64,000 nt of DNA. Source: Escherichia phage PBECO4. Shown in pieces: positions 5,924 through 59,127 of this stretch (positions within the stretch are counted from its first letter, which is position 1; each line of letters opens with the position of its first letter). The notes under the pieces were generated by a model. That model was not told where the DNA came from. It saw nothing but the letters and a program-made list of their open reading frames with translations, and did not search any database. The position numbers and the translations under genes are program-made. The DNA lies in sequence record KC295538. One strand, given 5' to 3'.

Positions 5924-5951
5924 AAGGGACTGACCGGAGTCAATCCCTTTT
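5924..5951. terminator. TTGACT-containing hairpin flanked by A-run and T-run (bidirectional terminator-like, copy 1 of 12)
   Basis: aaagggactgaccggagtcaatcccttttt; same element recurs 11 more times. Confidence 0.5.
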
Positions 5952-5964
5952 TTATTCTTTTTTG

Positions 5965-6165
5965 TTAGATGATTCTCCAATCATCAACGATCATGGTAAG
6001 ATACCGAACCAGTGATTCGAGTGATTCGTGTTCTCGATAGTCTGCCGCACCGCCAGCGGTACAAGTACAGCCGATTAAGCCGTTTTGCAATTCCTTAATC
6101 TGTACATCGATAAGGTTGGCTTTAGCTTCTTTCAGTACTTCAACCAGGGCGAGAGCGATAGACAT
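5965..6165 (-). CDS. hypothetical protein
   Basis: Track ORF; promoter+hairpin at 6166..6255. Confidence 0.6.
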   Translation of the reverse strand: MSIALALVEVLKEAKANLIDVQIKELQNGLIGCTCTAGGAADYREHESLESLVRYLTMIVDDWRII

Positions 6166-6255
6166 AATGTTTTACTCCAAACTATTGGCGGGAGAACTAT
6201 TCCCCCGCTCTATGTAAAACATTATACATTACTGGTTAGTACTGTCAAATAGTTT
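6166..6255 (-). promoter_or_regulatory. sigma70-like promoter + 5' UTR hairpin
   Basis: tgtcaa/attata on + strand (TTGACA/TATAAT on minus), hairpin gcgggagaactattcccccgc. Confidence 0.6.
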
Positions 6256-6513
6256 TTATGAAATATCTTCGATGTAGTCGGCCCATTTCATTTTTTCAGT
6301 ACTGTCAATGGCTACCGGATTATTTGGATCAAACCATTCACCATTACCGCAATACATACCAACGGCTACGGTTTTATAGCCATCCTGGGCCGTACACCAC
6401 GACATTGCACGATAGATATGGCCTTTAACTGGTTGCAGTACTGGTAACGTTTTATGGTCTTCTACGTAGGCCATAGCTTGAGGATTTACCCGATATTGTG
6501 TGAATTGTTCCAT
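6256..6513 (-). CDS. hypothetical protein
   Basis: Track ORF; TTGACA-N17-TGTAAT upstream (6514..6589). Confidence 0.6.
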   Translation of the reverse strand: MEQFTQYRVNPQAMAYVEDHKTLPVLQPVKGHIYRAMSWCTAQDGYKTVAVGMYCGNGEWFDPNNPVAIDSTEKMKWADYIEDIS

Positions 6514-6589
6514 TATGTTTCCCCTTGTAGTTAGTAAAGTTATTACATCAGTACTATCAAGCTATGTCAATAGTACTGAAATAAAACTT

Positions 6590-6814
6590 TTAGATTAGAT
6601 TATTGAGGCCGTCAATGGTAGACTCACTTTCTTCTTTCTCCCATTGTCGGTAGTACTTCCATGCTTCATGATAGGTGGCGATTAGTTCATCTTTTTGATC
6701 CTGGTTACATGCCAGTACTGAATCACGGTGAGCGGTGTTATAGATAGAATCGAATGATTTCTTCTCTTCTGCCAGGTTAGCTACTTCCCGCATCAGTTCA
6801 TCAAAGTTAGCCAT
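6590..6814 (-). CDS. hypothetical protein
   Basis: Track ORF; own promoter+hairpin. Confidence 0.6.
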   Translation of the reverse strand: MANFDELMREVANLAEEKKSFDSIYNTAHRDSVLACNQDQKDELIATYHEAWKYYRQWEKEESESTIDGLNNLI

Positions 6815-6881
6815 TTTATTACTCCTTTTAGTGGGGGAGGATATCTCCCCCTATGCAAAACATTATACTTTGTTTTAGTTA
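6815..6881 (-). promoter_or_regulatory. sigma70-like promoter + 5' UTR hairpin
   Basis: hairpin gggggaggatatctccccc; atgcaaaacattatac motif. Confidence 0.55.
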
Positions 6882-7145
6882 TTATGCAAGTACTTTTTTC
6901 ATATAAACATTAAATTCTACACCGCCGTAACCTTCCACGATGATATGTTTTGCGTTATCACGTTTGCACATAGTGAAACCATCGTTTACGTGTTTTGCAT
7001 TTTCCAGGGCGACATCACCGATAGCGGCACATACAGCACTAATAACGATATTCCGCAAAGTACTGGTATCATTAGCGGTCATAGTAGTTTGCATGATTAC
7101 GTTGTCGTATACGTGTGCATTGATAGTGATTTCGATAGTGTTCAT
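6882..7145 (-). CDS. hypothetical protein
   Basis: Track ORF. Confidence 0.6.
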   Translation of the reverse strand: MNTIEITINAHVYDNVIMQTTMTANDTSTLRNIVISAVCAAIGDVALENAKHVNDGFTMCKRDNAKHIIVEGYGGVEFNVYMKKVLA

Positions 7146-7231
7146 GGTGTATCTCCTGGACTGGCGGGAGAACTATTCCCCCGCTCTATGTAAAACATTA
7201 TACGTTAATCTAACTACAATGCAAGTACTTT
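7146..7231 (-). promoter_or_regulatory. sigma70-like promoter + 5' UTR hairpin
   Basis: hairpin gcgggagaactattcccccgc; atgtaaaacattatac. Confidence 0.55.
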
Positions 7232-7423
7232 TTAAATTTTATTTCCGATATAGTCTGGCCTGTTCTTTTCGGTCATACGCTTAAGCATTTTTTGCATATG
7301 GCTTATTGCTTGTAGTGTATCCTCTTCCAGGGATGAATCGAGATAATCAGGATCATTCTTCACCTTGCAATGATTATGATAGCGTAGTACTGCCAGTACT
7401 TTTTTAACTTCTTCAACTGTCAT
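7232..7423 (-). CDS. hypothetical protein
   Basis: Track ORF; overlaps upstream gene by 4 nt. Confidence 0.55.
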   Translation of the reverse strand: MTVEEVKKVLAVLRYHNHCKVKNDPDYLDSSLEEDTLQAISHMQKMLKRMTEKNRPDYIGNKI

Positions 7424-7692
7424 AATAAGTACTCCACTTCGTTAGCTTTCAGGTTAGTATCAATCATCAATGGTTTTTTGTAGTTCACAAAACGATTAGT
7501 TTTTTCGATAGCGAATCCCATATAATCCAGCTTACTAACAGTACATTCATTCTTAAAAACTTCTTTCGCTGCATCGATGGCTGATTGCATGGATAACCGA
7601 CCATCTAAATTAATGTTTCCAAATGATCCACCAGCAGAAGTAGGATTACCGTTCATATCTTTAATGATCATAGTAGCGGAGTAGCTGGACAT
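7420..7692 (-). CDS. hypothetical protein
   Basis: Track ORF; promoter+hairpin at 7693..7776. Confidence 0.6.
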   Translation of the reverse strand: MSSYSATMIIKDMNGNPTSAGGSFGNINLDGRLSMQSAIDAAKEVFKNECTVSKLDYMGFAIEKTNRFVNYKKPLMIDTNLKANEVEYLL

Positions 7693-7776
7693 AATTTTGT
7701 TTCCTTTTAGTATCGGGGAGAACTATTCTCCCCTTGATGTAAACTATTATACAGTACTAATATACTTTGTCAATAC
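7693..7776 (-). promoter_or_regulatory. consensus sigma70-like promoter + 5' UTR hairpin
   Basis: Minus strand TTGACA (7773..7768), 16-nt spacer ending AGTACTG, TATAAT (7751..7746); hairpin ggggagaa-cta-ttctcccc 7714..7733. Confidence 0.65.
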
Positions 7777-7998
7777 TTAATTACGTTTAAAATGATATGT
7801 GCCTTTATCATCCTGTACGCCCCATACTGATTTACCATCAACACCAGTGAAGCCGGATTGTAATTCAATATGGAAACCATTATTATCAACTACAAAAACT
7901 TTTTTATTTTCATCCCGATAACATTGATATTCTGAATCAACATTAAAGGCCGCATCATTCAGAAGATTGGAAGCGTAAATGCAAGTCATTGTAGTCAT
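7777..7998 (-). CDS. hypothetical protein
   Basis: Track ORF 7777..8073 trimmed to ATG 7998 (MTTMTCIY..) with AAGGA SD; extension is translated promoter/hairpin. Confidence 0.6.
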   Translation of the reverse strand: MTTMTCIYASNLLNDAAFNVDSEYQCYRDENKKVFVVDNNGFHIELQSGFTGVDGKSVWGVQDDKGTYHFKRN

Positions 7999-8179
7999 GA
8001 TTTTATTCCTTATTGCCAGGGAGAACCGTTTCCCCCTCTCGATATAAAACATTATACTTGATTCTAAGTACAATGCAAGTACTTTTTTAAAATAGTTTTC
8101 AGTACTGAATACTTATATAATAGATACACTTCCGCACCCTATGGGTCAGTGAGTTATCTCTCAATGAATATATAATAGC

Positions 8180-8210
8180 AAAGGGACTGACCGGAGTCAA
8201 TCCCTTTTTT
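8180..8210. terminator. TTGACT-containing hairpin element (copy 2)
   Basis: aagggactgaccggagtcaatccctttttt. Confidence 0.5.
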
Positions 8211-8218
8211 AATCTTTT

Positions 8219-8803
8219 TTATCGTGTTATAGTTACGGCTTTTACATCACGCTTTTTATAGTACTGATTCCAGATATTGCGGGTTAAACCGTAATCAAGT
8301 ACTTTAATAAGGCCGTTGCGATCCTGGCCGATATTCTGTTTTCTGATATCTCTTATCGTTAGTGTTGACAGTGTATCATCAACGTGTTGTAGTGCATCAG
8401 CAAAGCGGTGCTGGCGTTCAATAGCATTACGTTTAATATTGTACTTTAATTCGTTGCACGCGTTAACGTGCTTCACACTGCCTTTACTTGCAGTACTCAA
8501 CCGATCCATAACAATAAACATATTATCAGGATCGCTTAAATGCATATGCACTTTAGCGAAGAACTGTTTCAACTGAGGGCGGTCATAGTCTAAAAAATTC
8601 CATACCCTACATTCTGTTTCATTTTGTTCTACACCCGCATCACAATTCGCGACCTTGATCACTAACCGATCATTTAAAGCGAAAACTATACGGGAAGAAC
8701 CCGCACCGATGATCTCCAGACCAGCTAACCGACAAGCTGAAAGGATCTCTTTGTTGGTTTCCATTGCTGACAGGGTACGGATGAATTTAGTATAATTACG
8801 CAT
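8219..8803 (-). CDS. protein kinase-like protein (Hanks-type fold)
   Basis: IGAGSSRIVF glycine loop, VIKV lysine, IRDIRKQNIG catalytic-loop-like, LDYG (DFG-like); start trimmed to ATG 8803 with AAGGAG. Confidence 0.55.
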   Translation of the reverse strand: MRNYTKFIRTLSAMETNKEILSACRLAGLEIIGAGSSRIVFALNDRLVIKVANCDAGVEQNETECRVWNFLDYDRPQLKQFFAKVHMHLSDPDNMFIVMDRLSTASKGSVKHVNACNELKYNIKRNAIERQHRFADALQHVDDTLSTLTIRDIRKQNIGQDRNGLIKVLDYGLTRNIWNQYYKKRDVKAVTITR

Positions 8804-8834
8804 TGCATGTTCTCCTTGAGTTAATGAAACTATC

Positions 8835-9134
8835 TTACAGTACTTTACTATCAATGGCAACTACTTTTTTTACACTAACCGCGTGAATCACTTCCTTAGT
8901 GTTTTTAGTACTGAATACTTTCGCCGTGCCTTGTTCTACTGCAATACGATAACGACCGTTAACATCAACCATATTAATAAAGTCCGGTGTACTAAACCGA
9001 GTAGTTTTACATTTCAGTACTGTTAACAGTTCCACCAGCGATGTGGTTTCTTTGATACGTTTTTCTAAAGTAATCATTTTGTTTTCCCCGTGTTGGTATG
9101 TACATATAGTACTAAAACATTTGAGTACTGTCAA
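8835..9134 (-). CDS. hypothetical protein
   Basis: Track ORF. Confidence 0.55.
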   Translation of the reverse strand: MTVLKCFSTICTYQHGENKMITLEKRIKETTSLVELLTVLKCKTTRFSTPDFINMVDVNGRYRIAVEQGTAKVFSTKNTKEVIHAVSVKKVVAIDSKVL

Positions 9135-9385
9135 CGTGATATTAGTTTTATTTTCTTATTATATTGTTGATGTTCATAAAGGTTTATCTTTCCTGTGTTC
9201 TCTATTACTATTCTGTTGTTAGTGTCTACATCGATTACACGCAGTTTTCCGTTGCTTAACTTCCTTGGTAATAGGTTACCATTAATAAACTCATTAGCAA
9301 GCTGTACGGCCTTTGTGATGATTCTCTGAGGTGCTTTATAGTGTACCCGCAAGATATTATCTTTAGATAGTTGTACCTTAATCAT
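9131..9385 (-). CDS. hypothetical protein
   Basis: Track ORF; 4-nt overlap with downstream gene. Confidence 0.55.
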   Translation of the reverse strand: MIKVQLSKDNILRVHYKAPQRIITKAVQLANEFINGNLLPRKLSNGKLRVIDVDTNNRIVIENTGKINLYEHQQYNKKIKLISR

Positions 9386-9400
9386 TTTAGTTTATCCTAT

Positions 9401-9425
9401 AAAAAAGGCGGGAACTGATCCCGCC
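9401..9425 (-). terminator. rho-independent terminator (minus strand)
   Basis: ggcgggaactgatcccgcc hairpin preceded on + by AAAAAA (U-run on minus), just 3' of gene 9448..9843. Confidence 0.6.
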
Positions 9426-9447
9426 GTGTTGTTAGTACTGCAAGTTA

Positions 9448-9843
9448 TTAGATAACCTGTCGGCGTTTACTATATACTGTTACACGATTACCCTTACGGT
9501 CGTGTCGGATCTCTTTCTGGTTGCGTACCAGTTCACTTGGACGCTTCAGGTTTGCCAGGTGATCCGCGTGAGTCCAAGCGGTATGGTTTGTCTGTACTTT
9601 GATATCAGAATCAGCGATAAACTCATCTTGTGCATCAAGTATTGACGCCAGTAAATCCGCTCGTTTTAGTTCTGCTGCTGTTAGTACTGGCTCCGGTGAA
9701 TTCACAATATCAGAGATCTCTTTGAACTGTACGGCCCAGCGTTGACCTTTCGGTGCATCTTTGCCCATGTCTTTAAATGTTTCGCCTTCCTCGCGTGCAA
9801 CAATACGGGCAGCTTCACGGGTAGCGTAGAATTTAGTAATCAT
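9448..9843 (-). CDS. hypothetical protein, paralog of 22341..22607
   Basis: Shared FATRE.ARI.AR..G.TFKDMG and DRKGNRVTVY segments. Confidence 0.6.
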   Translation of the reverse strand: MITKFYATREAARIVAREEGETFKDMGKDAPKGQRWAVQFKEISDIVNSPEPVLTAAELKRADLLASILDAQDEFIADSDIKVQTNHTAWTHADHLANLKRPSELVRNQKEIRHDRKGNRVTVYSKRRQVI

Positions 9844-9938
9844 GGTATACATCCTATTAGTTGAGTTAGTACTACAAGTTAGAGTCTATTATAAAGTACT
9901 ATCTGGGCAATGTCAAATAGTACTTTAAATGGATTCTA

Positions 9939-10262
9939 TTACATGTCTTTCTTACGTTTTACATCGTGGTAGCGAACTGTTATTTCTTTGTTGATCTCTT
10001 CCTCGATGCGGTGAATAACTGTTTCTTTCGGGTTGAAACCTATAACGGTTTCTTTAATGATCTCCAAGCCCGTGTATTCTCCTTGTGTACCGTAACCGTA
10101 AGTAAAGGTTTCATGTCCCAGGTCTTCCCAGCGGTCGCCAATTAACGCGGACACGTAGCAAGAGTGGTAAGTGTTACCGTTCCGATCAGTCCAGCGATTA
10201 ACTTTAATGTCAAAGGAGGTTACAATTTTCAGTTCTACTTTCTGGGTAAGGATCATAGCCAT
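9939..10262 (-). CDS. hypothetical protein, paralog of 16709..17032
   Basis: Shared RWTD..GNTYHSC.VS, FTYGY, C-terminal DVKRKKD. Confidence 0.6.
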   Translation of the reverse strand: MAMILTQKVELKIVTSFDIKVNRWTDRNGNTYHSCYVSALIGDRWEDLGHETFTYGYGTQGEYTGLEIIKETVIGFNPKETVIHRIEEEINKEITVRYHDVKRKKDM

Positions 10263-10352
10263 TTTTATTTCTCTCTCTCTTTGTTAGGAGGGGAACCGTT
10301 TCCCCTCGCTTGATGTAAACTATTATACAGTACTAAGATACTTTGTCAATAC
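10263..10352 (-). promoter_or_regulatory. sigma70-like promoter + 5' UTR hairpin
   Basis: tgtcaa/attata on +; hairpin gaggggaaccgtttcccctc. Confidence 0.6.
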
Positions 10353-10535
10353 TTATTTTTTGGAAAGTTTACGCATTAATTCTACGCTTTCTTGTGAACG
10401 TTTTGCTACCTGGCAATCTGTATGGGTAGTAAACATTTTTGTATAGTCTGACGGTTTGCCACCGAACCGAGCGGCACGCTCACGGGCACTTGGAACTAAT
10501 ACGATTTCTTTCTTACAGATAGTGCACTTAGCCAT
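10353..10535 (-). CDS. small Cys-containing protein (possible zinc ribbon)
   Basis: CTICKK...HTDC in 60 aa; own promoter+hairpin. Confidence 0.5.
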   Translation of the reverse strand: MAKCTICKKEIVLVPSARERAARFGGKPSDYTKMFTTHTDCQVAKRSQESVELMRKLSKK

Positions 10536-10620
10536 TTTTATTTCTCTCTCTTTGTTAGGAGGGGAACCATTCCCCCCTTGATGTAAACTATTATACAGTA
10601 CTAAGATACTTTGTCAATAC
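10536..10620 (-). promoter_or_regulatory. sigma70-like promoter + 5' UTR hairpin
   Basis: Near-identical copy of unit 10263..10352. Confidence 0.6.
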
Positions 10621-10896
10621 TTAATTATTGTAAATGCAGTGAATAGTGATAAAGTTTTTACGACCGTAAACCTGCAAATCAATATCAATGTAGTGCTTAT
10701 CAAGTACATCCTCGACGCTTAACGCGGTGTCGTGAATATCTTCGTAGAATTGAGGATCTACAATCTTGCTTAAGTCATCCGGCGTTAACTTATCGTTAAG
10801 CCATTGAACCGCCTGGATATCTGCTTCACGTTTCCAGTCTTCCAGGTTAGTAGTCAGTACTTGCTCGATTTCGTTAGCTGTCAGTAGAATCCGCAT
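10621..10896 (-). CDS. hypothetical protein
   Basis: Track ORF. Confidence 0.55.
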   Translation of the reverse strand: MRILLTANEIEQVLTTNLEDWKREADIQAVQWLNDKLTPDDLSKIVDPQFYEDIHDTALSVEDVLDKHYIDIDLQVYGRKNFITIHCIYNN

Positions 10897-11093
10897 TTTT
10901 ATGTTTCCTTATCAGTAGTTGATGTAAGTATTATACTCGTTTACTTTCTATTGTCAATCTTTTTTTATCAGGGGAGTTTTTCGTATGTCTTACTCCTGGA
11001 CTACTTAACGGGGTTACTTGTTTTGTTCCCCGTCCTGATGTAAAACATTATACTTGATTCTAAGTACAATGCAAGTACTTTTTAAAAATAGTT

Positions 11094-11258
11094 TTACTTA
11101 CTCATATTAACAGGCTTGAACGGTGGCAATGTAAGATCATGCGGGGTTAAACTATCATGCTTTGCCCACATACCGGAATCCCTACGGAATAATACCTTAT
11201 TGTTTTTTATACGATAAAAGTTACCATTATCAGTGTTTTTGTACCATATCATTTTCAT
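11094..11258 (-). CDS. hypothetical small protein (54 aa)
   Basis: Own translation MKMIWYKNTDNGNF..; GGAG SD; promoter motif upstream. Confidence 0.4.
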   Translation of the reverse strand: MKMIWYKNTDNGNFYRIKNNKVLFRRDSGMWAKHDSLTPHDLTLPPFKPVNMSK

Positions 11259-11398
11259 TTACTCCTGGTTATGTCGTTATTAAACATTATACGGGGTTAT
11301 AGATAGTTTTCAAGTATATTTCAGTACTAGCCACCAGCATATAATAGATACATTTATGCACCCTATGGGCTGATTTTTTTCTATGCGTATATAATAGC

Positions 11399-11430
11399 AA
11401 AGGGACTGACCGGAGTCAATCCCTTTTTTA
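11399..11430. terminator. TTGACT-containing hairpin element (copy 3)
   Basis: agggactgaccggagtcaatccctttttt. Confidence 0.5.
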
Positions 11431-11437
11431 ATTCTTT

Positions 11438-11587
11438 TTAAACTTCTTTCGGGTTGCGATATGTGATAGCGTTCGGGTACATTTGTTTAATGTTATTCCA
11501 TGCCTGGTTAACATTGTAACCACTTGAGCGAATCAGTTGGTTACTACCGACACCTTGAAACACTACTTCGAATAAGAATTCTTTCAT
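11438..11587 (-). CDS. hypothetical small protein (49 aa)
   Basis: Own translation MKEFLFEVVFQG..; ATGA overlap with upstream ORF. Confidence 0.4.
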   Translation of the reverse strand: MKEFLFEVVFQGVGSNQLIRSSGYNVNQAWNNIKQMYPNAITYRNPKEV

Positions 11588-11757
11588 GCTTTCACCTCGC
11601 TATCTGCTTTACCTTTACGCCAGGACATTACTAATTGTTCGCGTTGCCATAAATCGAGTGATACAAAAAGTTTTGCGGTATCACTTTTAGGATACTCGCC
11701 AGTAGTACCTAACCGATAAAACAGATCTTTCAGTACTGATAATTCTACTTGAATCAT
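11584..11757 (-). CDS. hypothetical small protein (57 aa)
   Basis: Own translation MIQVELSVLKDLFYRLG..; translationally coupled. Confidence 0.4.
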   Translation of the reverse strand: MIQVELSVLKDLFYRLGTTGEYPKSDTAKLFVSLDLWQREQLVMSWRKGKADSEVKA

Positions 11758-11863
11758 TTTATTACTCCTGATTGATTTAATACTTCTACTATTGCATGAA
11801 TGATCATAAGTACAGCTAAAACAATAATCATCGGATTCATTTGCATAAGCTGTACTCCTTCTA

Positions 11864-12076
11864 TTAATCTTTCAGCCAATGATCTTGAATGAATTTTTCA
11901 CAGAATCCCTGTTTCATGGATTCCAACAGGCGTTCGCGGTGAGCGTTTGCGAATTGCTCAGTACTATGCGTTACGCCAGGCTGATAACGTGATACCCCAT
12001 CCGGTCCGATGTATTGTACATCCCACGGTTTTTCGTTAGTATCAGACCATTTACGAACGATTAGTTGACCTTGCAT
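11864..12076 (-). CDS. hypothetical protein
   Basis: Track ORF; promoter+hairpin 12077..12159. Confidence 0.6.
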   Translation of the reverse strand: MQGQLIVRKWSDTNEKPWDVQYIGPDGVSRYQPGVTHSTEQFANAHRERLLESMKQGFCEKFIQDHWLKD

Positions 12077-12159
12077 TTTTCTTTCCTCTCAGTGGGGAGA
12101 ATCATTTCTCCCCTTCATGTAACTTATTATACAGTACTAGATTATCTTGTCAATAGTTT
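12077..12159 (-). promoter_or_regulatory. sigma70-like promoter + 5' UTR hairpin
   Basis: ggggagaatcatttctcccc hairpin; tgtcaa/attata. Confidence 0.6.
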
Positions 12160-12483
12160 TTATTCACCTTGTTTGAATTTAGTTTTCTCCATTGATTCCA
12201 TGATTGCAACCAATACGCCGTGGATCTCGCTTAACGCGGAATCACTGAAAGCATTAATGAATAGTCGATCATTCTCGCGAATATTTTTAATGTACTTTTC
12301 AGCAGTAGTTGCGAATTCATTCAACGGTAGATCAAATGCTTTATCCCATGATGGATGGCGTAATTGTAACAGTACTGGATTATCACGATCACCAGGGGAA
12401 AACGTACCAGTGATGAAACATACGCCCGGAATACTTTCGAACTGGCAACGGACTTCCTTTGTGATAGTAGTATGAATGTACAT
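12160..12483 (-). CDS. hypothetical protein
   Basis: Track ORF. Confidence 0.55.
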   Translation of the reverse strand: MYIHTTITKEVRCQFESIPGVCFITGTFSPGDRDNPVLLQLRHPSWDKAFDLPLNEFATTAEKYIKNIRENDRLFINAFSDSALSEIHGVLVAIMESMEKTKFKQGE

Positions 12484-12510
12484 TTATTGTTATCCTCTAT
12501 TAAATTAATA

Positions 12511-12705
12511 TTACAGTTTATGAATCAATTCTTTATCTAAGCGATAGCGTACATTATTAATAGTAACGGCATTGTTTTTAATGCTACGCTGTACAGGTCC
12601 ACCAGCAATAACAAATGTTGCTTTATTACCCCGAACAATGATAGCACTTCCAGGATTACCGAAATCATCTTGTACTAAAATACTTGATAAGTTTTCCATT
12701 TTCAT
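12511..12705 (-). CDS. hypothetical protein
   Basis: Track ORF; promoter+hairpin upstream. Confidence 0.55.
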   Translation of the reverse strand: MKMENLSSILVQDDFGNPGSAIIVRGNKATFVIAGGPVQRSIKNNAVTINNVRYRLDKELIHKL

Positions 12706-12780
12706 TTCCTCTTAGTAGGGGAAGATGTTTCCCCTTGATGTAAGTACTATAACACTACTGGATAGTACTGTCAATACTTT
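12706..12780 (-). promoter_or_regulatory. promoter + 5' UTR hairpin
   Basis: hairpin aggggaagatgtttcccct; tgtcaa -35. Confidence 0.5.
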
Positions 12781-13038
12781 TTATCTCATAGATCTATGCC
12801 AACAATTACGCGGGGGACGTTTAAAAGTACTATCATGATCCTCCTGGCAAGTTATGCAGTACTTACATCCCTTAACGGCCTGGCGTCGTTTCTCAGGGAT
12901 TATATCGCCGCAGTCGAGGCAATGTATCAGTGATTCTATTTGTGCGTTAATTTGCTTTCTAGCGTGGTTAACGGCGGCCTGAATCACTGCGTTAATCTCG
13001 TCTTGTTCGGCCCCATCTTTCGCGAATCCTACAGCCAT
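12781..13038 (-). CDS. TraR/DksA-family C4 zinc finger protein
   Basis: C-x2-C-G-x2-IP-x2-RR-x5-C-x2-C spacing (HCLDCGDIIPEKRRQAVKGCKYCITCQ) matches the DksA/TraR zinc finger. Confidence 0.6.
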   Translation of the reverse strand: MAVGFAKDGAEQDEINAVIQAAVNHARKQINAQIESLIHCLDCGDIIPEKRRQAVKGCKYCITCQEDHDSTFKRPPRNCWHRSMR

Positions 13039-13369
13039 TATTTTAACCTCATTATAAAAATACTATAGTACTGTAATGCGACAATAATATTACTTGTTCT
13101 TACTTTTTCCAATCCACATGATACCACATATTCATCCCCATATGTGCGGAACGATACACCATGAAAATTTTTATACACTTGCACTACTAATCATAACCTT
13201 TCGTCTAACCAACTGCATAGAATTATACTACTTTACGCAAATTGATCAAGTATTGATCAGATCATTTTTTGATCAATATTATACAGTTACATTTGTGCAC
13301 CCTATGGGTTAGTGACGTTCTCGTCTTGATGTAAGTATTATGCCAGTACTTGATGATATTGTCAATAGT

Positions 13370-13567
13370 TTATTTTAATTTTTTTCTGTCATTGATTAAT
13401 GCTTTCAGTACTATACTAATGATTTGCAATGATTCATCAATGACTATAAAATTATTCTCTTTCATTAGATGATAGTTACCATTGATTGTATATTCTAAGG
13501 AGTACTGTTTACGTTTAATTTTTGATAATGTTTCTATTTGTTTTTGTACTGATTTCATGCTAATCAT
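13370..13567 (-). CDS. hypothetical protein
   Basis: Track ORF. Confidence 0.5.
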   Translation of the reverse strand: MISMKSVQKQIETLSKIKRKQYSLEYTINGNYHLMKENNFIVIDESLQIISIVLKALINDRKKLK

Positions 13568-13672
13568 TGTTAAACGTCCTGTAACGCATTCTAACGAGAT
13601 AAACGGTTTAGTACTGGCATTGTATAGGGTAATGAATTAAAGCCCACCAGCGTTAACCAGTGGGCTATAATC

Positions 13673-14391: not shown

Positions 14392-14485
14392 TTTGTTTTC
14401 TCTCTGTTAGTGGGGAGAATCATTTCTCCCCTTCATGTAACTTATTATACAGTACTATAATCTATTGTCAAACTATTTTTTTATA
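14392..14485 (-). promoter_or_regulatory. sigma70-like promoter + 5' UTR hairpin
   Basis: ggggagaatcatttctcccc hairpin identical to that at 12077..12159. Confidence 0.6.
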
Positions 14486-14827: not shown

Positions 14828-15019
14828 GATTCGTTTCCTTATTACTAGGGGAAACCGTTTCCCCTTTCGATGTAAAACATTATACGCTTATTGAGATAGT
14901 TTGCAAGTACTTTTTATCAAATACTTTAAAATAGTTTTCAGTACTCAAACATTATACAATAGATACACTCCTGCACCCTGTGGGCTAGTGAGCTATCTCT
15001 CAATGATTATATAATAACA

Positions 15020-15049
15020 AAATGGCTGACCGAAGTCAACCACTTTTTT
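15020..15049. terminator. TTGACT-containing hairpin element (copy 4, variant)
   Basis: aatggctgaccgaagtcaaccacttttttc. Confidence 0.45.
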
Positions 15050-15426: not shown

Positions 15427-15507
15427 TTTGTATCTCCTGTTATCGGGGAGAATCATTTCTCCCCTTCATGTAAAACATTATACAGTACTAAAAACTAATT
15501 GCAAGTA
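15427..15507 (-). promoter_or_regulatory. sigma70-like promoter (TTGCAA -35) + 5' UTR hairpin
   Basis: ggggagaatcatttctcccc; ttgcaagtatt on +. Confidence 0.6.
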
Positions 15508-15750
15508 TTATTTTAAACTTTGTGCGACTAATTTCGCACGGTCAATCATATACTGCCATTTTTGGATCTCTTCTGGCAGAAAACGATATTCACCAATAAC
15601 AATAGTGATACACTTTTCAGCTTGGTCAATGTATGTAGTATCAATCTCGACTTGAACGGGTACACGTTCGCCGTATTCAGTCCCTGGGATAATGCAATCA
15701 TTATCATAAGTTACAGTAGTAGTAGTGTCTTTGATTAAAATTGTTTCCAT
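15508..15750 (-). CDS. hypothetical protein
   Basis: Track ORF. Confidence 0.6.
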   Translation of the reverse strand: METILIKDTTTTVTYDNDCIIPGTEYGERVPVQVEIDTTYIDQAEKCITIVIGEYRFLPEEIQKWQYMIDRAKLVAQSLK

Positions 15751-19426: not shown

Positions 19427-19500
19427 TACTACATCAAGACGAAACAGTCACTAACCCACCGGGTGCCGAGATCCGTCTATTAAATGATTCAGTACTTAAC

Positions 19501-46061: not shown

Positions 46062-46096
46062 TTCGTTATCCTCATCAGTTGATGAAATAATTATAG

Positions 46097-46125
46097 CAAA
46101 AAGGGCTGACCGAAGTCAACCCTTT
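46097..46125. terminator. TTGACT-containing hairpin element (copy 5), TATAAT follows on minus strand
   Basis: aaaaagggctgaccgaagtcaaccctttttat; minus strand gggTTGACTtcggtcagccctttttgcTATAAT. Confidence 0.55.
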
Positions 46126-46236
46126 TTATAAACATATTTAATACACACAATTACCCATATCAATATTTTTACCATTATAGGTAATAATATATTTTATCTT
46201 ATTAGGTTTAATAACAAAAACTTTTAATTTTTGTAT

Positions 46237-47853: not shown

Positions 47854-47887
47854 TTGTTACCTCTTGTGTTGATGAAATAATTATAGC

Positions 47888-47915
47888 AAAAAGGGCTGAC
47901 CGAAGTCAACCCTTT
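47888..47915. terminator. TTGACT-containing hairpin element (copy 6)
   Basis: aagggctgaccgaagtcaacccttt. Confidence 0.5.
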
Positions 47916-48775: not shown

Positions 48776-48822
48776 GTATTCATCCTCTCGTTTCGATGAA
48801 ATGATTATAGCAAAAAGGGCTG

Positions 48823-48850
48823 ACCGAAGTCAACCCTTTTCTTTATTCAA
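48823..48850. terminator. TTGACT-containing hairpin element (copy 7)
   Basis: aaaaagggctgaccgaagtcaaccctttt. Confidence 0.5.
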
Positions 48851-49112
48851 TGATCCCCAACTTCACAATCTCATACCCGTCCAGATAGCCATATGAACAC
48901 TCAGGAGTTTCATAGGATGAACCATCATGGATACCCTGGCATTGACTTTTAGAATTCTCAAGAAGTCGTTGCAGTACTGATACGTCCTCAAGAACGTAAC
49001 ACAAGGATACATCTGGGTCTTCCACGATACAGTACTCCAACATATCAAACGTATCAATCGAAATTTCAACCTTGGCAAATCGTTTCTTTTCTTTATTATA
49101 CAGTGCGTACAT
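48843..49112 (-). CDS. hypothetical protein
   Basis: Track ORF 48843..49130 trimmed to MYALYNKEKK.. Confidence 0.5.
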   Translation of the reverse strand: MYALYNKEKKRFAKVEISIDTFDMLEYCIVEDPDVSLCYVLEDVSVLQRLLENSKSQCQGIHDGSSYETPECSYGYLDGYEIVKLGIIE

Positions 49113-52331: not shown

Positions 52332-52973
52332 TCAATAAAAAACTGGATCTTCTTCAGTAATTGGTATTTCTCTACGTACATCACACGAAAGAGGATCAGT
52401 AATGAATACATTCCCATCTTTATCCATCATCACATTACTTGAATGAATGTCTGGTACAAAACGCCCGTGAAACTCTTTCATGATGTTAGCAGCGACCGTC
52501 GCAATAGCAATCTCTTCAGAATTTCCACGCATATCATTCACTGAAGTAGCGTACTGACCAGCATGTGCATAAGAATATAAATCTCCAATTTTAGTACTAA
52601 CAAAGTCATCATAATTATTTTTTTGTTTAATTATAGGATAGTACTTGTCCATCTCATACCATCCAAAGTTTCCTTGTTCGTTTGCACTGTAGATCACTGG
52701 AAGAAACTTGGTTCCTGCGTTTTCAATGCAGTACTTTGCATAAGCACGAAAACCATCCCAGCGTGAAGTGGTTACTTTAAATGCACGCCCAGGATAGTTT
52801 TTATGTTCAACTACTACAGAGTACATCCCCATTCCAAGCAAAGTAAGTCCAGCAGCTTTAACTTGTGGAAAGATTACGCGTTCAGCATAAGGAATATCAA
52901 ACTCCATCGCACAACGAGTTTTTGATGGACGCAAAATGTCAATTAAAGTTTTGAATATTTCTTGCTTAGTCAT
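52332..52973 (-). CDS. atypical kinase-like protein (phosphotransferase fold)
   Basis: LGMGMYSVVV glycine loop-like, RAFKV lysine, DIHSSNVMMDKDGNVFITD resembling D.H..N...IID of APH/Kdo-kinase-type enzymes; start trimmed to MTKQEIF.. Confidence 0.45.
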   Translation of the reverse strand: MTKQEIFKTLIDILRPSKTRCAMEFDIPYAERVIFPQVKAAGLTLLGMGMYSVVVEHKNYPGRAFKVTTSRWDGFRAYAKYCIENAGTKFLPVIYSANEQGNFGWYEMDKYYPIIKQKNNYDDFVSTKIGDLYSYAHAGQYATSVNDMRGNSEEIAIATVAANIMKEFHGRFVPDIHSSNVMMDKDGNVFITDPLSCDVRREIPITEEDPVFY

Positions 52974-53010
52974 TACTTTATCCTCTGTAGTTAATATCAA
53001 CATCATAACA

Positions 53011-53037
53011 AAAAAGGCTGACCGAAGTCAACCCTTT
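53011..53037. terminator. TTGACT-containing hairpin element (copy 8)
   Basis: aaaaaaggctgaccgaagtcaaccctttt. Confidence 0.5.
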
Positions 53038-53042
53038 TATTA

Positions 53043-54061: not shown

Positions 54062-54098
54062 TGTAATCCCTCTTCTTAATTCCTCTTTTGTATTTACA

Positions 54099-54127
54099 AA
54101 AAAAGGCTGACCGAAGTCAACCTTTTA
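54099..54127. terminator. TTGACT-containing hairpin element (copy 9)
   Basis: aaaaggctgaccgaagtcaacctttt. Confidence 0.5.
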
Positions 54128-54132: not shown

Positions 54133-55644
54133 TTATTTTTTATCCTTTCCAACACCACTGTCGTACTCTTTGAATGAGTTATCAAGTGTAGTTAGTGCAT
54201 ACTCATATGCTTCTGGTGATTCAATGTCAACATCATCTGCACCATTTACTAAATCAGCCCACGCCTTTTGAAGTTTACGAGCATTGTTACCAACATTATC
54301 TTTAATCCAACTAATGTTTTTGTTGATACTTTTACGATCAGCACCTGCTTTTTTGCCAATCTCGGATATCCACATCATTAGCTTTTGAAGTTCATGAATT
54401 GATTTATCGGTCATTTCAAGATGTTCTTCTTCCATACCTTCGGAATCAGATGAACCAACGTCAATTCCATGTTTAGCTAATAGTTTACCAAGTTCAAAGA
54501 ATGCAGCTTCAGCAGGGAAGTCATAACCTTTCTCTTTGTAGTTATTCCATGCACTATCAAACTCGTCAACAAAACGGTTAGCATAATCTGGATTTTTAAC
54601 TAATGCTTTATATACTGCAATTGCATGTTCAAAACCTTCTTTATCTGACCCAAACTCTTCCATCTCAGGACGATGAATGTATCCATCCATATCAACGGTA
54701 TCAGGTAGTTCTTCTTGCTCAGGCTCAACATCTTTCTGTTCAACTGCACCCTCTTCATCTGCACGCTTTAGATAACCATCTGGTGTTACCTTCTCACCAT
54801 GTTCTGCTTCATACTTTTTCATAGTGTTGAATGCAGCATCCATAGCTGTTACGAAGCGACTTTTCTCACCTTGTACATAAGATTTAAGTGCACTGTTAAC
54901 TGCATCTGATACGAGCTTAACCTTATCGTCTTTACCTTCTAAACGGTTTTCAAGTTTAGCCAGTACATTCTTGACTTGCTGGGCATTAGCACGGTCCGCT
55001 TTACCAATATTATCAAAAGTTTTAAGAATACCATCAAGACTTGCTTCACCCTGTTCAGGTTCTTTGGAATCTTCTTTGTGTGTACCTTCAAGTGCACGCA
55101 TGATAGTACTGAATACTTCAGTTGGTTCAGTGCTCTTATTACCTTTCATTACATCAAGTACAGCTTGTGCTTTACCTTTGAGTTCTTCTTTAGGAACTGC
55201 CTGTAGTGCTTTGACAATACCCTGAATCAACTGTGGTTTGTTAGCAAAGATCTTACCTAAGTTATCTGATAACTCTTTAACAGGGTTAGCAGCTTTAGGT
55301 ACTTCTGCTTTTGGTTCTTCTTTAGGAACTGCTTGTTCTTTCTCAGCACGTTCCATATCAGCTAGGCGTTGTTTTTGTGTAGCATTAAGAAGTCCCAATG
55401 AATTAACATAACGTAGCTTTTCTAGCTCAGTCATGTTCTCAGTACTCTTAACTTCACCTGCTTCTGCGTTTGCTTTACCAGCTAGACCAGTTCCTTGGTT
55501 ACGTGACCCACGTGAACCTTGACCTGCTTGATAACTATTTGGACGGCGGTTGCGTTCACTCCATTTATCAGAGTGACCAGCCATGTTACCACCATTTTTA
55601 TCAGTAAAATTACTTGGCATTTGATTTCTCTCCATAGATTTCAT
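54133..55644 (-). CDS. large hydrophilic protein (503 aa), paralogous segment shared with 55890..56273
   Basis: Charged K/E-rich; shared YVNSLGLL / YLDSLGLL and ..KALQAVPKEELKGKA / ..KLKVTPKEHFKATV segments. Confidence 0.6.
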   Translation of the reverse strand: MKSMERNQMPSNFTDKNGGNMAGHSDKWSERNRRPNSYQAGQGSRGSRNQGTGLAGKANAEAGEVKSTENMTELEKLRYVNSLGLLNATQKQRLADMERAEKEQAVPKEEPKAEVPKAANPVKELSDNLGKIFANKPQLIQGIVKALQAVPKEELKGKAQAVLDVMKGNKSTEPTEVFSTIMRALEGTHKEDSKEPEQGEASLDGILKTFDNIGKADRANAQQVKNVLAKLENRLEGKDDKVKLVSDAVNSALKSYVQGEKSRFVTAMDAAFNTMKKYEAEHGEKVTPDGYLKRADEEGAVEQKDVEPEQEELPDTVDMDGYIHRPEMEEFGSDKEGFEHAIAVYKALVKNPDYANRFVDEFDSAWNNYKEKGYDFPAEAAFFELGKLLAKHGIDVGSSDSEGMEEEHLEMTDKSIHELQKLMMWISEIGKKAGADRKSINKNISWIKDNVGNNARKLQKAWADLVNGADDVDIESPEAYEYALTTLDNSFKEYDSGVGKDKK

Positions 55645-55676
55645 TTTTTTCTCTATGTCTATATTTATAGTATAAA

Positions 55677-55704
55677 GAAAAGGCTGACCGAAGTCAACCT
55701 TATT
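55677..55704. terminator. TTGACT-containing hairpin element (copy 10)
   Basis: aaaaggctgaccgaagtcaacctta. Confidence 0.5.
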
Positions 55705-55824: not shown

Positions 55825-55860
55825 TGATACCTCAGTTATATTGAGAAGTTATGATACAAC

Positions 55861-55888
55861 AAAGGGCTGACCTTAGTCAACCCTTTTT
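55861..55888. terminator. TTGACT-containing hairpin element (copy 11, variant loop)
   Basis: aaagggctgaccttagtcaaccctttttat. Confidence 0.5.
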
Positions 55889-56845: not shown

Positions 56846-57442
56846 TCATAAATCACGAACAATATTCATTAAACACAATTTAGGTTTTATAGCATTCAAC
56901 ACCCATATGCATTCTTTGTAAGTAGCTATTATATCATCTAAATGCTCAGTTACAATGCTTTCTTGAAAATATTCTTCATCATTGAGCTTTGCTAATTTAG
57001 TAACATCACACGTAGGCACTATAGGTCTGGATTGTACACCCATTCCATTATTGATATTAGTGAAATGTACAAAATGGTACTTCACTACACCTTTATCTAG
57101 ATTTATTATACATGACAAATTTTCCAACTCAGTTAGTTTTTTATTACAAGTAACATTAATGAAACCAGCATTATAGGCTCTATAATCATCTACTGATATC
57201 TCAAAATCATTACGTTCAAATATAAGTGAAATGAGTTGGTCCAGTGGTTTGACATTCATATATTTTAATGAATTTACGTATGATACTTCAATCTTAGATG
57301 AAATTATCTTTTTACTAAGTGCAGTTAAATCTTTGTTAGATTTAACTGTTAAAACAATAGGTTTAAACCTAGAACTTTTGTTCTTTTTTGATACTTTAAA
57401 ACGACCTTTACGATTCATAATTTCCTCAATTAATAATTTCAC
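56846..57442 (-). CDS. hypothetical protein (198 aa)
   Basis: Track ORF. Confidence 0.55.
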   Translation of the reverse strand: MKLLIEEIMNRKGRFKVSKKNKSSRFKPIVLTVKSNKDLTALSKKIISSKIEVSYVNSLKYMNVKPLDQLISLIFERNDFEISVDDYRAYNAGFINVTCNKKLTELENLSCIINLDKGVVKYHFVHFTNINNGMGVQSRPIVPTCDVTKLAKLNDEEYFQESIVTEHLDDIIATYKECIWVLNAIKPKLCLMNIVRDL

Positions 57443-57647
57443 ATTTAACGTGTGGTTTATATAGCATAATTAACCCATTTTTAAGTACAATGATTGTTGC
57501 TCTGTTAGTAATCGAAACGTTTTTAATTATACTTTTTTTATATGTTTCAACATATTTCTCTTCATAATTTATACATTTAACATATTCTTTTTGTTTAGCA
57601 CTTACAACAGTACTGAATAATATCAGTACAAGTACTATATATTTCAT
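57426..57647 (-). CDS. small secreted protein (signal peptide)
   Basis: MKYIVLVLILFSTVVSAKQ. Confidence 0.5.
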   Translation of the reverse strand: MKYIVLVLILFSTVVSAKQKEYVKCINYEEKYVETYKKSIIKNVSITNRATIIVLKNGLIMLYKPHVKCEIIN

Positions 57648-57699
57648 TACTATACCTTATAAACAAAAAGGAATTCATTTAAGAATTCCTATTTTACAA

Positions 57700-57993
57700 T
57701 CATTTATCTAACATACCATTGTGCAAACGTTCATATACTTCAGTTCGACGCAAATTAACAATATCTTCTGCGTATTTTAATGTAAATGCCCATGCTTTTG
57801 GATGTACGTTAAGCTTCATACGAATTCGATTTTTCATCAACTCTCCACTTAAACGAATAAATTCGTGTACACCACGACTACCGTATTCAGTAATTAAATC
57901 ATTAATGTACATATCACGAAGAGTTTCATCTGCACATTCTTTAACCATTTCTACGTCAGCGACGATGCTTTCATTAACTGAAGTACTGATCAT
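57700..57993 (-). CDS. hypothetical protein
   Basis: Track ORF. Confidence 0.55.
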   Translation of the reverse strand: MISTSVNESIVADVEMVKECADETLRDMYINDLITEYGSRGVHEFIRLSGELMKNRIRMKLNVHPKAWAFTLKYAEDIVNLRRTEVYERLHNGMLDK

Positions 57994-58005
57994 TTTTAAT
58001 TTACC

Positions 58006-58272
58006 TTATTTAAATTCGACTGTAATTTTATCACCTTCAACTACGAACTTACAGTTGTAGCGACGTGCCATATCCATGTACATATGCTCAGAGTACCAAG
58101 GAACATCAATAATCGGATGCTCTGCATATTGTAAAACTTCACGGTCGCCCACTGTAGTAATGATGAAAGGAATGTTCATCTCTCGTAAAAACAGTTCAGC
58201 ACCAGGAGAACGATTAATAAATTCAGTATCATTACGTAAAGTAAATCCATTATATTGTAATTTAAGCTTCAT
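58006..58272 (-). CDS. hypothetical protein
   Basis: Track ORF. Confidence 0.55.
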   Translation of the reverse strand: MKLKLQYNGFTLRNDTEFINRSPGAELFLREMNIPFIITTVGDREVLQYAEHPIIDVPWYSEHMYMDMARRYNCKFVVEGDKITVEFK

Positions 58273-58286
58273 ATGTTATCCTCTAT

Positions 58287-58631
58287 TCAATACCATTCTT
58301 TAAAACCATTAAGTTCGGCTACGTGAGTGATTATAACACATATAACATTCAGGTCAAGTATAATTTGATCATAATTTAATTTTATACGATCATCATTATA
58401 TGCTCTAAAAACTACATCGTAATCAAAGAAATTTGCGTTTTCATCATTCATTGAAACGATTCGGTATCTACGTCTTCCATCTGTATTGAATATAGTTAAA
58501 CACTGTTGAAACTTTCTCATTAACTGTTTAGATAGGATATTATAATATTCAATATCTTTTTGTGAATTACGTGGGTCATCAGGAAGATAGAATGAAACAA
58601 ATTTCTTTAATTCTATTTGAGTTTTATCCAT
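58287..58631 (-). CDS. hypothetical protein
   Basis: Track ORF; overlaps upstream gene. Confidence 0.55.
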   Translation of the reverse strand: MDKTQIELKKFVSFYLPDDPRNSQKDIEYYNILSKQLMRKFQQCLTIFNTDGRRRYRIVSMNDENANFFDYDVVFRAYNDDRIKLNYDQIILDLNVICVIITHVAELNGFKEWY

Positions 58632-59064
58632 ATATTACCTCATTTGTTTCTCTTTTACTTTGTCGGAACTCATCCTTTGCTTCCTTAACTGACATGATAC
58701 GAACTAATTTAGCACTACCGCAATAGTACTGAACCTGATTACGACCAATGTCTACATGGTGGTCTGGAACTTCATATACAGATATAGCAAACCCAGCACG
58801 ATGCAATTTACCTAAGTCCATAGTGAAGAATCTGAACAAATCTTTCAAACTTTGACAGCCAAATACCCATCCACTTTTGATTGAATAAATCCCATCCTCA
58901 GTTGGTTCAGGTTGGAATTGAGAAGGTGTAGTCATGAGCAAACGGTCAAATCCATTTTTAGTACTGTATCTGGTTGAATACCGTGCAAACGGACCTACAG
59001 TTCGTGCAGGATCTAAGTTAGGTTCAATGTAACTAAATTTAAGTTCAAAACGATATACATACAT
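58624..59064 (-). CDS. hypothetical protein
   Basis: Track ORF; hairpin element upstream. Confidence 0.55.
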   Translation of the reverse strand: MYVYRFELKFSYIEPNLDPARTVGPFARYSTRYSTKNGFDRLLMTTPSQFQPEPTEDGIYSIKSGWVFGCQSLKDLFRFFTMDLGKLHRAGFAISVYEVPDHHVDIGRNQVQYYCGSAKLVRIMSVKEAKDEFRQSKRETNEVIYG

Positions 59065-59100
59065 AATTAAAATCCTCTAATTTATTAAGAGAATTATAAC

Positions 59101-59127
59101 AAAAAAGGCTGACCGAAGTCAACCTTT
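59101..59127. terminator. TTGACT-containing hairpin element (copy 12)
   Basis: aaaaaaggctgaccgaagtcaaccttt. Confidence 0.5.

Follow-up and report, generated by a model that had tools for sequence, protein, structure and literature searches.

Several T4-type phages carry a repeated intergenic element, the promoter-early stem-loop (PeSL), in which a stem-loop is joined to a sigma-70 early promoter close to consensus and to an AT-rich region upstream of it (Arbiol et al. 2010, PMC2839356; Comeau et al. 2014, PMC4122927). PeSLs have been described in RB49/phi1 (PMC2839356) and in PST/T4 and nt-1/KVP40 (PMC4122927). They are found in hyperplastic, ORFan-rich regions, where they drive modular shuffling, including the formation of excised mini-circles; they fall into five positional subclasses, in one of which the stem-loop overlaps the -35 hexamer, and in lacZ constructs the stem-loop gave termination equal to that of rrnB T1 (PMC2839356; PMC4122927). 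Here we analyzed 64,000 nucleotides (nt) of Escherichia phage PBECO4 (record KC295538; this whole stretch is referred to as the window), in which a hairpin containing the hexamer TTGACT is repeated twelve times. We consider it highly probable that each copy is a PeSL-type composite terminator-promoter cassette placed between same-strand early genes of this Rak2/121Q-like jumbo phage.

The likeness to PeSLs extends to all of their features that can be read from sequence, namely a promoter with an AT-rich upstream region, a stable stem-loop, intergenic repetition in regions of small open reading frames (ORFs), and association with insertions and deletions. Both elements occupy the gap from one small gene's stop codon to the Shine-Dalgarno sequence and ATG of the gene that follows. 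Both are also tied to indels and swaps in close relatives through recombination within the element, and the identical sequence is present in KVP40-like Vibrio phages and, presumably, in Aeromonas phage 65. There are also differences. The phages considered here are Rak2/121Q-like jumbo phages that are only distantly T4-like, and one tight sequence class dominates in place of the five positional subclasses of RB49/phi1. The stem is built on TTGAC rather than on the Gn-loop-Cn plan, and the overlap is total, with the 5' arm doubling as the -35 and the 3' arm and U-run doubling as the spacer. Mini-circles and reporter activity have been demonstrated in RB49/phi1.

A second precedent comes from the genome report on phage CBB, which predicts 18 RpoD-like promoters that have an UP-like element and are concentrated in the terminal repeat and among the small ORFs of the early region (Buttimer et al. 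2017, PMC5259590). CBB and GAP32 belong to the same phage group as PBECO4, and their RpoD-like promoters have the same layout, TTGAC.-N17/18-TATAAT after an A-rich element. The accessible part of that report, however, describes them only as promoters, lists terminators separately and does not mention a -35 within a hairpin (PMC5259590). We found the exact 18-mer of the PBECO4 hairpin in both the CBB and the GAP32 genomes. A description that joins the terminator and promoter readings in Rak2/121Q-like phages was not found in the literature; the words promoter, terminator, stem-loop and hairpin are all absent from the papers on Sharanji, fEgEco12, UE-S1 and RaK2, and a literature search with the literal sequence returned only an unrelated regulon paper.

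Genomic context and census of the element

Between 45 and 56 kb, the window matches in pieces, at 95-99% identity by megablast, the Escherichia phages 121Q, CRJP21, slurp01, G17 and others, which are members of the genus Asteriusvirus, Rak2/121Q-like jumbo myoviruses of ~350 kb. The part of the window from 4 to 16.5 kb aligns to positions 3341-13596 of fEgEco12, a phage with an experimentally confirmed direct terminal repeat of 20,993 bp (PMC13070987). As the aligned positions fall inside this repeat, the 4-16.5 kb part of the window belongs to the terminal-repeat, early region.

We searched the whole window on both strands for the pattern GGGCTGACCGAAGTCAACCC, allowing up to three mismatches, and obtained 12 matches (core starts in Table 1), every one of them on the plus strand, with the genes on the minus strand; none of 100 dinucleotide-preserving shuffles had any match. 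The 12 copies were also used to build a covariance model, which, run over the whole window with filters off, recovered the same 12 at 56-71 bits and no extra or degenerate copies, the next-best hits being the reverse strands of the same sites at 18-30 bits. The copies form two clusters, with four at 5.9-15 kb, eight at 46-59 kb and none at 16-45 kb, and both clusters sit among ORFs of 37-503 amino acids (aa) that mostly lack a Pfam match. In the complete 348-kb genome of 121Q, all seven exact 18-mers fall within the stretch homologous to the window. An Rfam scan of the window at gathering thresholds gave no match, and ARAGORN found neither transfer RNA nor transfer-messenger RNA genes in it. 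An earlier note on this DNA, made by reading the sequence without database searches, had claimed a 12-copy repeat, and the single orientation of the matches and the shuffled controls bear this out; its coordinates agree with ours to a few bases if the A-run is counted, except for a start at 48823, which misses by ~10 nt but falls within the element at 48804-48841.

Anatomy of the element

On the minus strand, the consensus runs from a stop codon through 6-18 A-rich nucleotides and (A)AAAA into GGGTTGAC, TTCG, GTCAGCCC, TTTTT, GC and TATAAT, after which come ~10 nt, GAGG, another ~7 nt and ATG. The stem consists of 8 pairs (8-9 across copies), one of them T·G, closed by a UUCG loop in the consensus; it contains 4-6 G-C pairs and reaches 9-14 bp when the A-U extension is included. 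The -35 hexamer TTGACT, present in all 12 copies, is made up of the 5' arm's final five bases and the first base of the loop, while the 3' arm together with the T-run forms a spacer of 17-18 nt. A -10-like hexamer that agrees with TATAAT in at least 4 of its 6 bases follows at 17-18 nt after the -35 in 11 of the 12 copies (TATAAT and TATTAT four times each, TATGAT, TATCAT and TATACT once each), and the -10 is of the extended type, TGnTATAAT, with TG at -15/-14 in nine copies. The earlier note was therefore right to place TTGACT in the minus-strand stem with a -10 downstream.

The position of the element relative to genes is also regular. In 11 of the 12 copies, the stem follows the stop codon at a distance of -7 to 18 nt, the -7 case being an overlap with a doubtful ORF that starts with GTG. 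From the end of the stem to the ATG, the distance is 36-42 nt in seven of the eight right-hand copies; for the eighth (53015), where the ORF finder chose an ATG further 5', the likely start is ~43 nt past the stem. All flanking ORFs are on the minus strand. More variation is seen in the tails, which read TTTTTG(C/T)T in four copies (46103, 47893, 48817 and 59106), TTTTTTG or TTTTTTT in 53015 and 54104, TTTTGT in 15023, TTTGCT in copies 1-3, TTTGTT in 55864 and TTTTCT in 55681.

A G+C-rich stem of at least 5 bp, a loop of 3-8 nt and an adjoining U-rich tract, which together identify an intrinsic terminator, are all present. A simple terminator scanner lists only two of the 12 copies, because the T-run is absorbed into the A-T extension of the stem, and we have set these misses aside as an artefact. 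The element shares with intrinsic (Rho-independent) terminators the G+C-clamped stem, the 4-nt loop of UNCG type, the U-run and the location just past a stop codon. It differs from them in that the U-run, at 3-7 nt, is curtailed by the -10, and the release point would lie inside the spacer of the next promoter. On the upstream side, the A-run plus GGG resembles AAAAAARNR, the proximal UP-element subsite reported by Estrem and colleagues in 1999. Rather than as part of a terminator for the opposite strand, the A-run is better understood as an UP-like, AT-rich stretch ahead of the promoter, which also lengthens the stem.

Evidence that the hairpin is selected as RNA

In an ungapped alignment of the 12 copies, three pairs vary on both sides (G-C to A-U, G-C to U-A and A-U to G-C), yielding 10 compensatory cells, a count that none of 500 shuffles reached. 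Copies 1-3 have an added A-T pair in the stem and a T-run cut from 5 to 3, and their -35/-10 spacing is still 17 nt; a longer stem with unchanged promoter spacing indicates that stem and promoter constraints act together. In a wider sample of 93 instances, drawn from 35 loci in other phage contigs, 97.4% of cells are paired and covariation recurs at the two variable outer pairs; overall, stem pairs are kept in 92-97% of cells. Part of the phage instance set comes from loci seeded with the exact 18-mer, and sequence conservation in it is biased upward. The loops are informative as well. There are 21 distinct loop sequences, which include three of the four possible UNCG loops (UUCG, UCCG and UACG) and five of the eight possible GNRA loops (GAGA, GAAA, GUAA, GCGA and GCAA), although these two classes account for just 12 of the 256 possible tetramers. 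A GNRA loop changes the -35 to TTGACG, and the promoter survives the swap. This leaning towards UNCG and GNRA tetraloops favours a function in RNA over a palindrome acting purely at the DNA level or bound by a protein.

These results bear on a promoter-only interpretation, in which no RNA would be terminated and the inverted repeat would be either a by-product of juxtaposing an A-rich UP region, a -35 and a T-rich spacer or a DNA cruciform that tunes promoter strength. Promoter features are indeed near-universal among the instances and U-runs are short in some copies, and the window holds other strong promoters that lack a hairpin (e.g., TTGACA-16-TATAAT at 60894 and 50304). A sigma-70 spacer needs no set sequence, however, yet here the 3' arm is near-invariant and covaries with the 5' arm; the loop variants are of the RNA-stable UNCG and GNRA types; and the conserved G·U wobble fits RNA but would be a mismatch in a cruciform. 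The same hairpin also serves as a stand-alone terminator in bacteria (see below), and the elements are placed 6-18 nt after stop codons. We therefore judge it improbable that the element is a promoter and nothing else.

Outer-stem covariation and stable RNA tetraloops would likewise be unexpected if the palindrome TTGAC-N4-GTCAg were the operator of a dimeric regulator covering the -35 and spacer and switching early promoters off or on. Such a regulator might be a host protein of the FNR/CRP family, as the site resembles TTGA-N6-TCAA, or a phage protein, and either would be compatible with promoter function. The half-sites TTGAC and GTCAG are nearly invariant across instances, the palindrome is centred near -29.5 as inferred from the layout of the copies, which is a typical repressor position, and large lytic phages are known to need to shut off their early promoters. 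Against this, the half-sites are asymmetric, with G where A is needed, in about 10 of 11 instances, phages with the element infect both Gram-negative and Gram-positive hosts, for which a common regulator is unlikely, and no candidate regulator was identified; we find an operator very unlikely. The FNR/CRP family was also considered in its own right. Its operators are symmetric (TTGAT-N4-ATCAA) and, for activation, centred near -41.5 or -61.5, whereas TTGAC/GTCAG is asymmetric and centred at about -29.5. The loop classes and host range also speak against such a site, and this candidate, for which binding was not assayed, is rated low.

The wobble pair would give the element a direction. Predicted sense-strand RNA hairpins have free energies of -12.4 to -19.5 kcal/mol, compared with -6.4 to -13.5 kcal/mol on the plus strand, where the fold is weaker because the conserved U·G pair turns into an A·C mismatch. 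Unbiased scans of IMG/VR returned the wobble version GGTTGACTTCGGTCAGCC at 39 loci (57 matches) and the perfect palindrome, with GTCAA, at 5, an excess of roughly 10 to 1. We infer that the wobble keeps the element unidirectional, as it leaves no TTGAC on the opposite strand and only a weak antisense hairpin. The earlier note had proposed termination in both directions. On this reading, sense and antisense transcripts would be stopped equally by means of the A-run and T-run. The rough symmetry of these two runs on the 5' and 3' sides of the hairpin does recall bidirectional intrinsic terminators, and the covariance model does score the reverse strand, if weakly. In such terminators, however, both strands form a comparable hairpin with a U-tract and the flanking genes converge; here the hairpin is strand-asymmetric, being 5-9 kcal/mol weaker on the plus strand, the wobble version prevails over the perfect palindrome in viral contigs, and no plus-strand ORF adjoins any copy, so that there is no convergent transcription to stop. 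An equal block in both directions seems extremely unlikely, and this part of the earlier proposal is not supported.

Evidence that the promoter is selected

Both the stem and the promoter geometry are under selection, as is clear from a larger set of phage instances. A hexamer matching TATAAT at 4/6 or more positions lies 17-18 nt after the -35 in 91 of 96 distinct phage instances, and 75 of the 96 have TG at -15/-14. As a bacterial control, we searched for the exact 18-mer hairpin in 185,579 bacterial and archaeal genomes, where it occurs in 50 places. Of these, 22 have a terminator-like T-tail, and they come from Acinetobacter, Exiguobacterium, Vibrio, Bacteroidetes and others; the remaining sites are in G+C-rich, apparently coding contexts. 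The motif TAnnnT was found at 17-18 nt in only three of the 22 T-tailed bacterial copies, compared with 44 of 48 phage copies (Fisher P = 1.7e-10). From the rarity of the -10 in bacterial copies we conclude that cells use the hairpin by itself as a plain terminator and that its fusion with a -10 is phage-specific.

It follows that a terminator, or a stabiliser of mRNA 3' ends, with an incidental TTGACT...TATAAT in AT-rich intergenic DNA is a poor fit. Public records do annotate the hairpins solely as terminators or stem-loops. In the GenBank record of G17 they are features named 'putative transcriptional terminator', predicted with ARNOLD on the gene strand, and the copies that we located coincide with these features; the UE-S1 record labels them terminators, and one hairpin in the GAP32 record is a 'stem_loop' found with ARNold. 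A plain promoter scan of the AT-rich region also stays near the shuffled level, with 97 promoter-like sites versus 90.9. Incidental hexamers would nevertheless not account for the near-constant spacing in phages and its rarity next to identical bacterial hairpins, for the shortening of the T-run that offsets an added stem pair and preserves the spacing, or for the fixed distance to the Shine-Dalgarno sequence and ATG, nor would they agree with the RpoD-like promoters with an UP-like element predicted in CBB in the accessible part of that report (PMC5259590). We give this alternative very little credence.

Recombination at the elements

Using local blastn, we compared the 44-60.5 kb part of the window with the homologous loci of six relatives and identified 36 breakpoint clusters interrupting collinear blocks. 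Seven of the 36 fall in the 80-nt intervals around elements, which make up 4% of the region (binomial P about 5e-4, a rough statistic, as it ignores any intergenic preference of breakpoints and the six relatives are not mutually independent). Five phages break at 46126-46130, each with different genes upstream of the break. Two pairs of copies flank cassettes that are absent from UE-S1: copies 5 and 6 (46103 and 47893) enclose a 1.8-kb cassette of three ORFs, and copies 10 and 11 (55681 and 55864) a 183-bp cassette with a 37-aa ORF. At both loci UE-S1 has a single hybrid element, in which the promoter-side flank matches the first copy of the window and the terminator-side flank matches the second. 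Recombination junctions thus lie inside the element, and these hybrid flanks are the signature of homologous exchange within the repeat. A mobile element of the miniature inverted-repeat transposable element or repetitive extragenic palindromic type was rejected, since the unit is ~45 nt long, has no terminal repeats or target duplications and is always in register with gene ends.

A model for the cassette

We propose that the same bases would be read twice, at the level of RNA and at the level of duplex DNA. With RNA polymerase coming in from the upstream gene, the A-run, GGGUUGAC-UUCG-GUCAGCCC and the U-run would fold into an 8-9 bp, G+C-clamped hairpin with an extra-stable tetraloop followed by U's, and this structure would act as an intrinsic terminator or at least as an attenuator, releasing the upstream transcript 6-18 nt past its stop codon. 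In duplex form, these bases would constitute a strong host sigma-70 promoter, with the A-run as an UP-like element, the -35 in the 5' arm, a spacer of 17-18 bp provided by the 3' arm and T-run, and TGnTATAAT as an extended -10. Transcription would start ~7 nt past the -10 and produce a leader of ~20 nt with GAGG, followed by the ATG. Each gene or small group of genes could in this way form an insulated, self-sufficient unit, and the repeated cassettes of ~45 bp would provide sites of homologous recombination at which gene cassettes may be gained, lost and swapped among related phages. The element would be a PeSL-type cassette of unusual economy, since nearly every base of the terminator would also belong to the promoter.

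Several observations weigh against this model. Transcript 5'- or 3'-end data for this phage or its relatives were not found in the literature. The U-run is short in some copies, with 3 U in copies 1-3 and 55864 and UUUUC in 55681, and termination may be partial or weak at these copies. The -10 of copy 54104 is merely TAAATA; not every copy need therefore be bifunctional, and this one may be mostly a terminator. Of the breakpoint clusters, 29 of 36 lie outside the elements, which makes the elements one route of shuffling among others, and the caveats given above on seeded loci and on the breakpoint statistic belong here too. The suggestion that the terminator of one gene doubles as the -35 of the next is nonetheless supported by the anatomy, the covariation, the tetraloops, the phage-specific -10 and the terminator annotations, and it is only the bidirectionality attached to it that lacks support; that the element terminates and initiates transcription, and how efficiently it does so, we infer from its sequence.

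Distribution in other phages

The same 18-35 nt, with the same coupling to a -10, are present in RaK2, K64-1, GAP32, CBB and fHe-Yen9-04, and the element with this coupling also occurs in KVP40-like Vibrio phages such as VH7D, in Stenotrophomonas phage RAS14 and in the Vequintavirinae CR3, CR8, CR9 and PBES02. It extends to Herelleviridae of Gram-positive hosts, being found in Brochothrix phage A9 and, with a slightly different loop, in Bacillus phage BCPG3. A 235,229-bp contig that carries the element is presumably Aeromonas phage 65. Because every base appears to have a job (the UP-like A-run, the G3 clamp, the -35, cUUCGg, the complementary arm, the U-run, the TG and the -10), convergence is plausible, but the shared leader start CATCGAAAC in several lineages hints at exchange instead. 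Separately, the chromosome record of Bdellovibrio bacteriovorus strain kdesi contains, at 2599-2616, the element with flanks identical to Stenotrophomonas phage RAS14 over ~80 nt, which suggests phage-derived or contaminating sequence in that assembly.

Individual copies and neighbouring features

The coordinates of the twelve copies and of two associated sequence families are given in Table 1.

Table 1. Positions of the hairpin copies, leader motifs and second-family promoters in the window. Core starts are those of the plus-strand pattern matches.
Feature	Position	Strand	Core start	Details
Copy 1	5915..5950	-	5927	Stem GGGATTGAC/GTCAGTCCC, one extra A-T pair, UCCG loop
Copy 1 promoter	5943-5938 (-35)	-		-35 TTGACT, 17-nt spacer, TG and TATTAT
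Copy 1 leader motif	5894-5882	-		GCCCACAGGGTGC; second promoter ~110 nt downstream of copy 1
Copy 2	8172..8207	-	8184	Variant as copy 1: UCCG loop, 17-nt spacer, TATTAT; leader motif 8146-8134
Copy 3	11391..11426	-	11403	Variant as copy 1; leader motif 11370-11358
Copy 4	15011..15046	-	15023	Outer pair T-A replacing G-C, UUCG, 17-nt spacer, TATTAT; leader motif 14985-14973
Copy 5	46090..46128	-	46103	Consensus form AAAAAGGGTTGACTTCGGTCAGCCCTTTTTGCTATAAT; 41 nt 5' of ATG of AAA-ATPase-like gene 45291-46061
Copy 5 homology break	46126-46130			Common to five relatives
Copy 6	47880..47915	-	47893	Consensus form; 6 nt past stop codon of ORF 47919-48278
Copy 7	48804..48841	-	48817	Consensus form; upstream of denV-like pyrimidine dimer glycosylase gene 48341-48775
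Copy 7 homology break	48842-48851			Versus slurp01 and WPEC3
Copy 8	53002..53038	-	53015	Outer pair G·U, -10 TATGAT; upstream of protein-kinase-like gene 52332-53006
Copy 8 homology break	53050			Versus UE-S1
Copy 9	54093..54126	-	54104	Outer pair A-U, 7-T run, degenerate -10 TAAATA; homology break versus SD-15_S21 at 54126
Copy 10	55669..55701	-	55681	Outer pair A-U, 17-nt spacer, -10 TATACT; upstream of 503-aa gene 54133-55644
Copy 11	55851..55886	-	55864	Loop UAAG, -10 TATCAT
Copy 12	59093..59127	-	59106	Outer pair A-U, TG and TATAAT; 41 nt 5' of ATG of ORF 58624-59064
CCCA-YM-GGGTGC	5882-5894, 8134-8146, 11358-11370, 13297-13309, 14973-14985, 21927-21939	-
CCCA-YM-GGGTGC	19454-19466, 21869-21881, 24125-24137, 24340-24352	+
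Second promoter family, examples	15446-15513, 14413-14480, 12095-12162, 10291-10358, 7166-7233	-

The four left-hand copies are followed by an invariant leader motif, CCCA-YM-GGGTGC, which occurs 10 times in the window on both strands combined, versus 0.62 expected. It always lies ~20-35 nt past a sigma-70-like -10, both behind copies 1-4 (at about +20) and behind promoters of other types, and it is conserved in GAP32, RaK2, K64-1, CBB and Erwinia and Xanthomonas jumbo phages. For the motifs behind copies 1-4, the sole structure predicted by RNAalifold is an invariant stem of 4 bp closed by a 3-nt loop, which shows no covariation, and there was no Rfam match. The position of the motif recalls nut-type or other leader signals. 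In GAP32, at 1520-1960, the hairpin promoter and the CCCATAGGGTGC leader head ~400 nt without an annotated ORF that end at an annotated Rho-independent terminator, and this stretch is a candidate non-coding RNA.

A broader scenario would join these observations. The ~45-nt module might be a near-universal minimal terminator-promoter fusion, exchanged or convergent among Rak2-like phages, T4-like Straboviridae, Vequintavirinae and the Herelleviridae A9 and BCPG3, with the wobble enforcing polarity, and the terminal-repeat copies might in addition be coupled to the +20 leader motif CCCA-YM-GGGUGC as a nut-like signal that gives read-through of downstream cassette terminators. We regard this combination as speculative and rather doubtful. 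If it were true, the leader motif and the cassettes would amount to a built-in switch from immediate-early to delayed-early expression.

A second promoter family, with at least 13 copies on the minus strand, is found between 4000 and 17000. Its members consist of TTGACA or TTGCAA, N17 and TATAAT, and ~10 nt past the -10 the leader contains a hairpin, GGGGAGAA-TCAT-TTCTCCCC, which lacks a U-run and is followed by a Shine-Dalgarno sequence. Copies 1-4 of the element lie ~110 nt upstream of such a promoter and form tandem promoters with it. The palindromic octamer CAGTACTG is also abundant, with 56 occurrences in the window versus 0.79 expected; it is densest at 19-25.5 kb and is often found in promoter spacers just 5' of the -10 (CAGTACTGTATAAT, AGTACTGGCATAAT) and in ORF-free DNA.

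Many of these octamers are spread across 24000-25700, a stretch of ~1.7 kb that has no ORF of 60 aa or more save two short overlapping ones at its start (24063-24251 and 24134-24379). An iteron-like array of ~12 copies of the 8-nt unit TAGCCGTC lies within it at 24536-24634, and the stretch lies where cumulative GC skew reaches its minimum and genes change strand. It might mark the boundary of a terminal repeat, or serve as an origin or in packaging. Two runs of ORFs elsewhere in the window look like tandem paralogue arrays: ~20 ORFs of 60-77 aa on the minus strand at 25706-29756, and nine consecutive ORFs of ~360-430 aa on the plus strand at 29841-40876. A neighbouring gene in WPEC3 is annotated as 'regulator of chromosome condensation / ATS1 superfamily'.

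Implications for Rak2/121Q-like phages

Rak2/121Q-like phages, most of whose genes lack an assigned function, are candidate agents for phage therapy. Reading the element as a terminator plus a promoter would define early transcription units in genomes whose records label only terminators or stem-loops. As about the most compact insulated expression signal that could be designed, the cassette would also be a ready-made part for synthetic biology. Its occurrence in phages of both Gram-negative and Gram-positive hosts poses the question of convergence versus horizontal spread in a form that can be tested. Among close isolates of this group, the element would explain some of the mosaicism with which small early genes are gained and lost.

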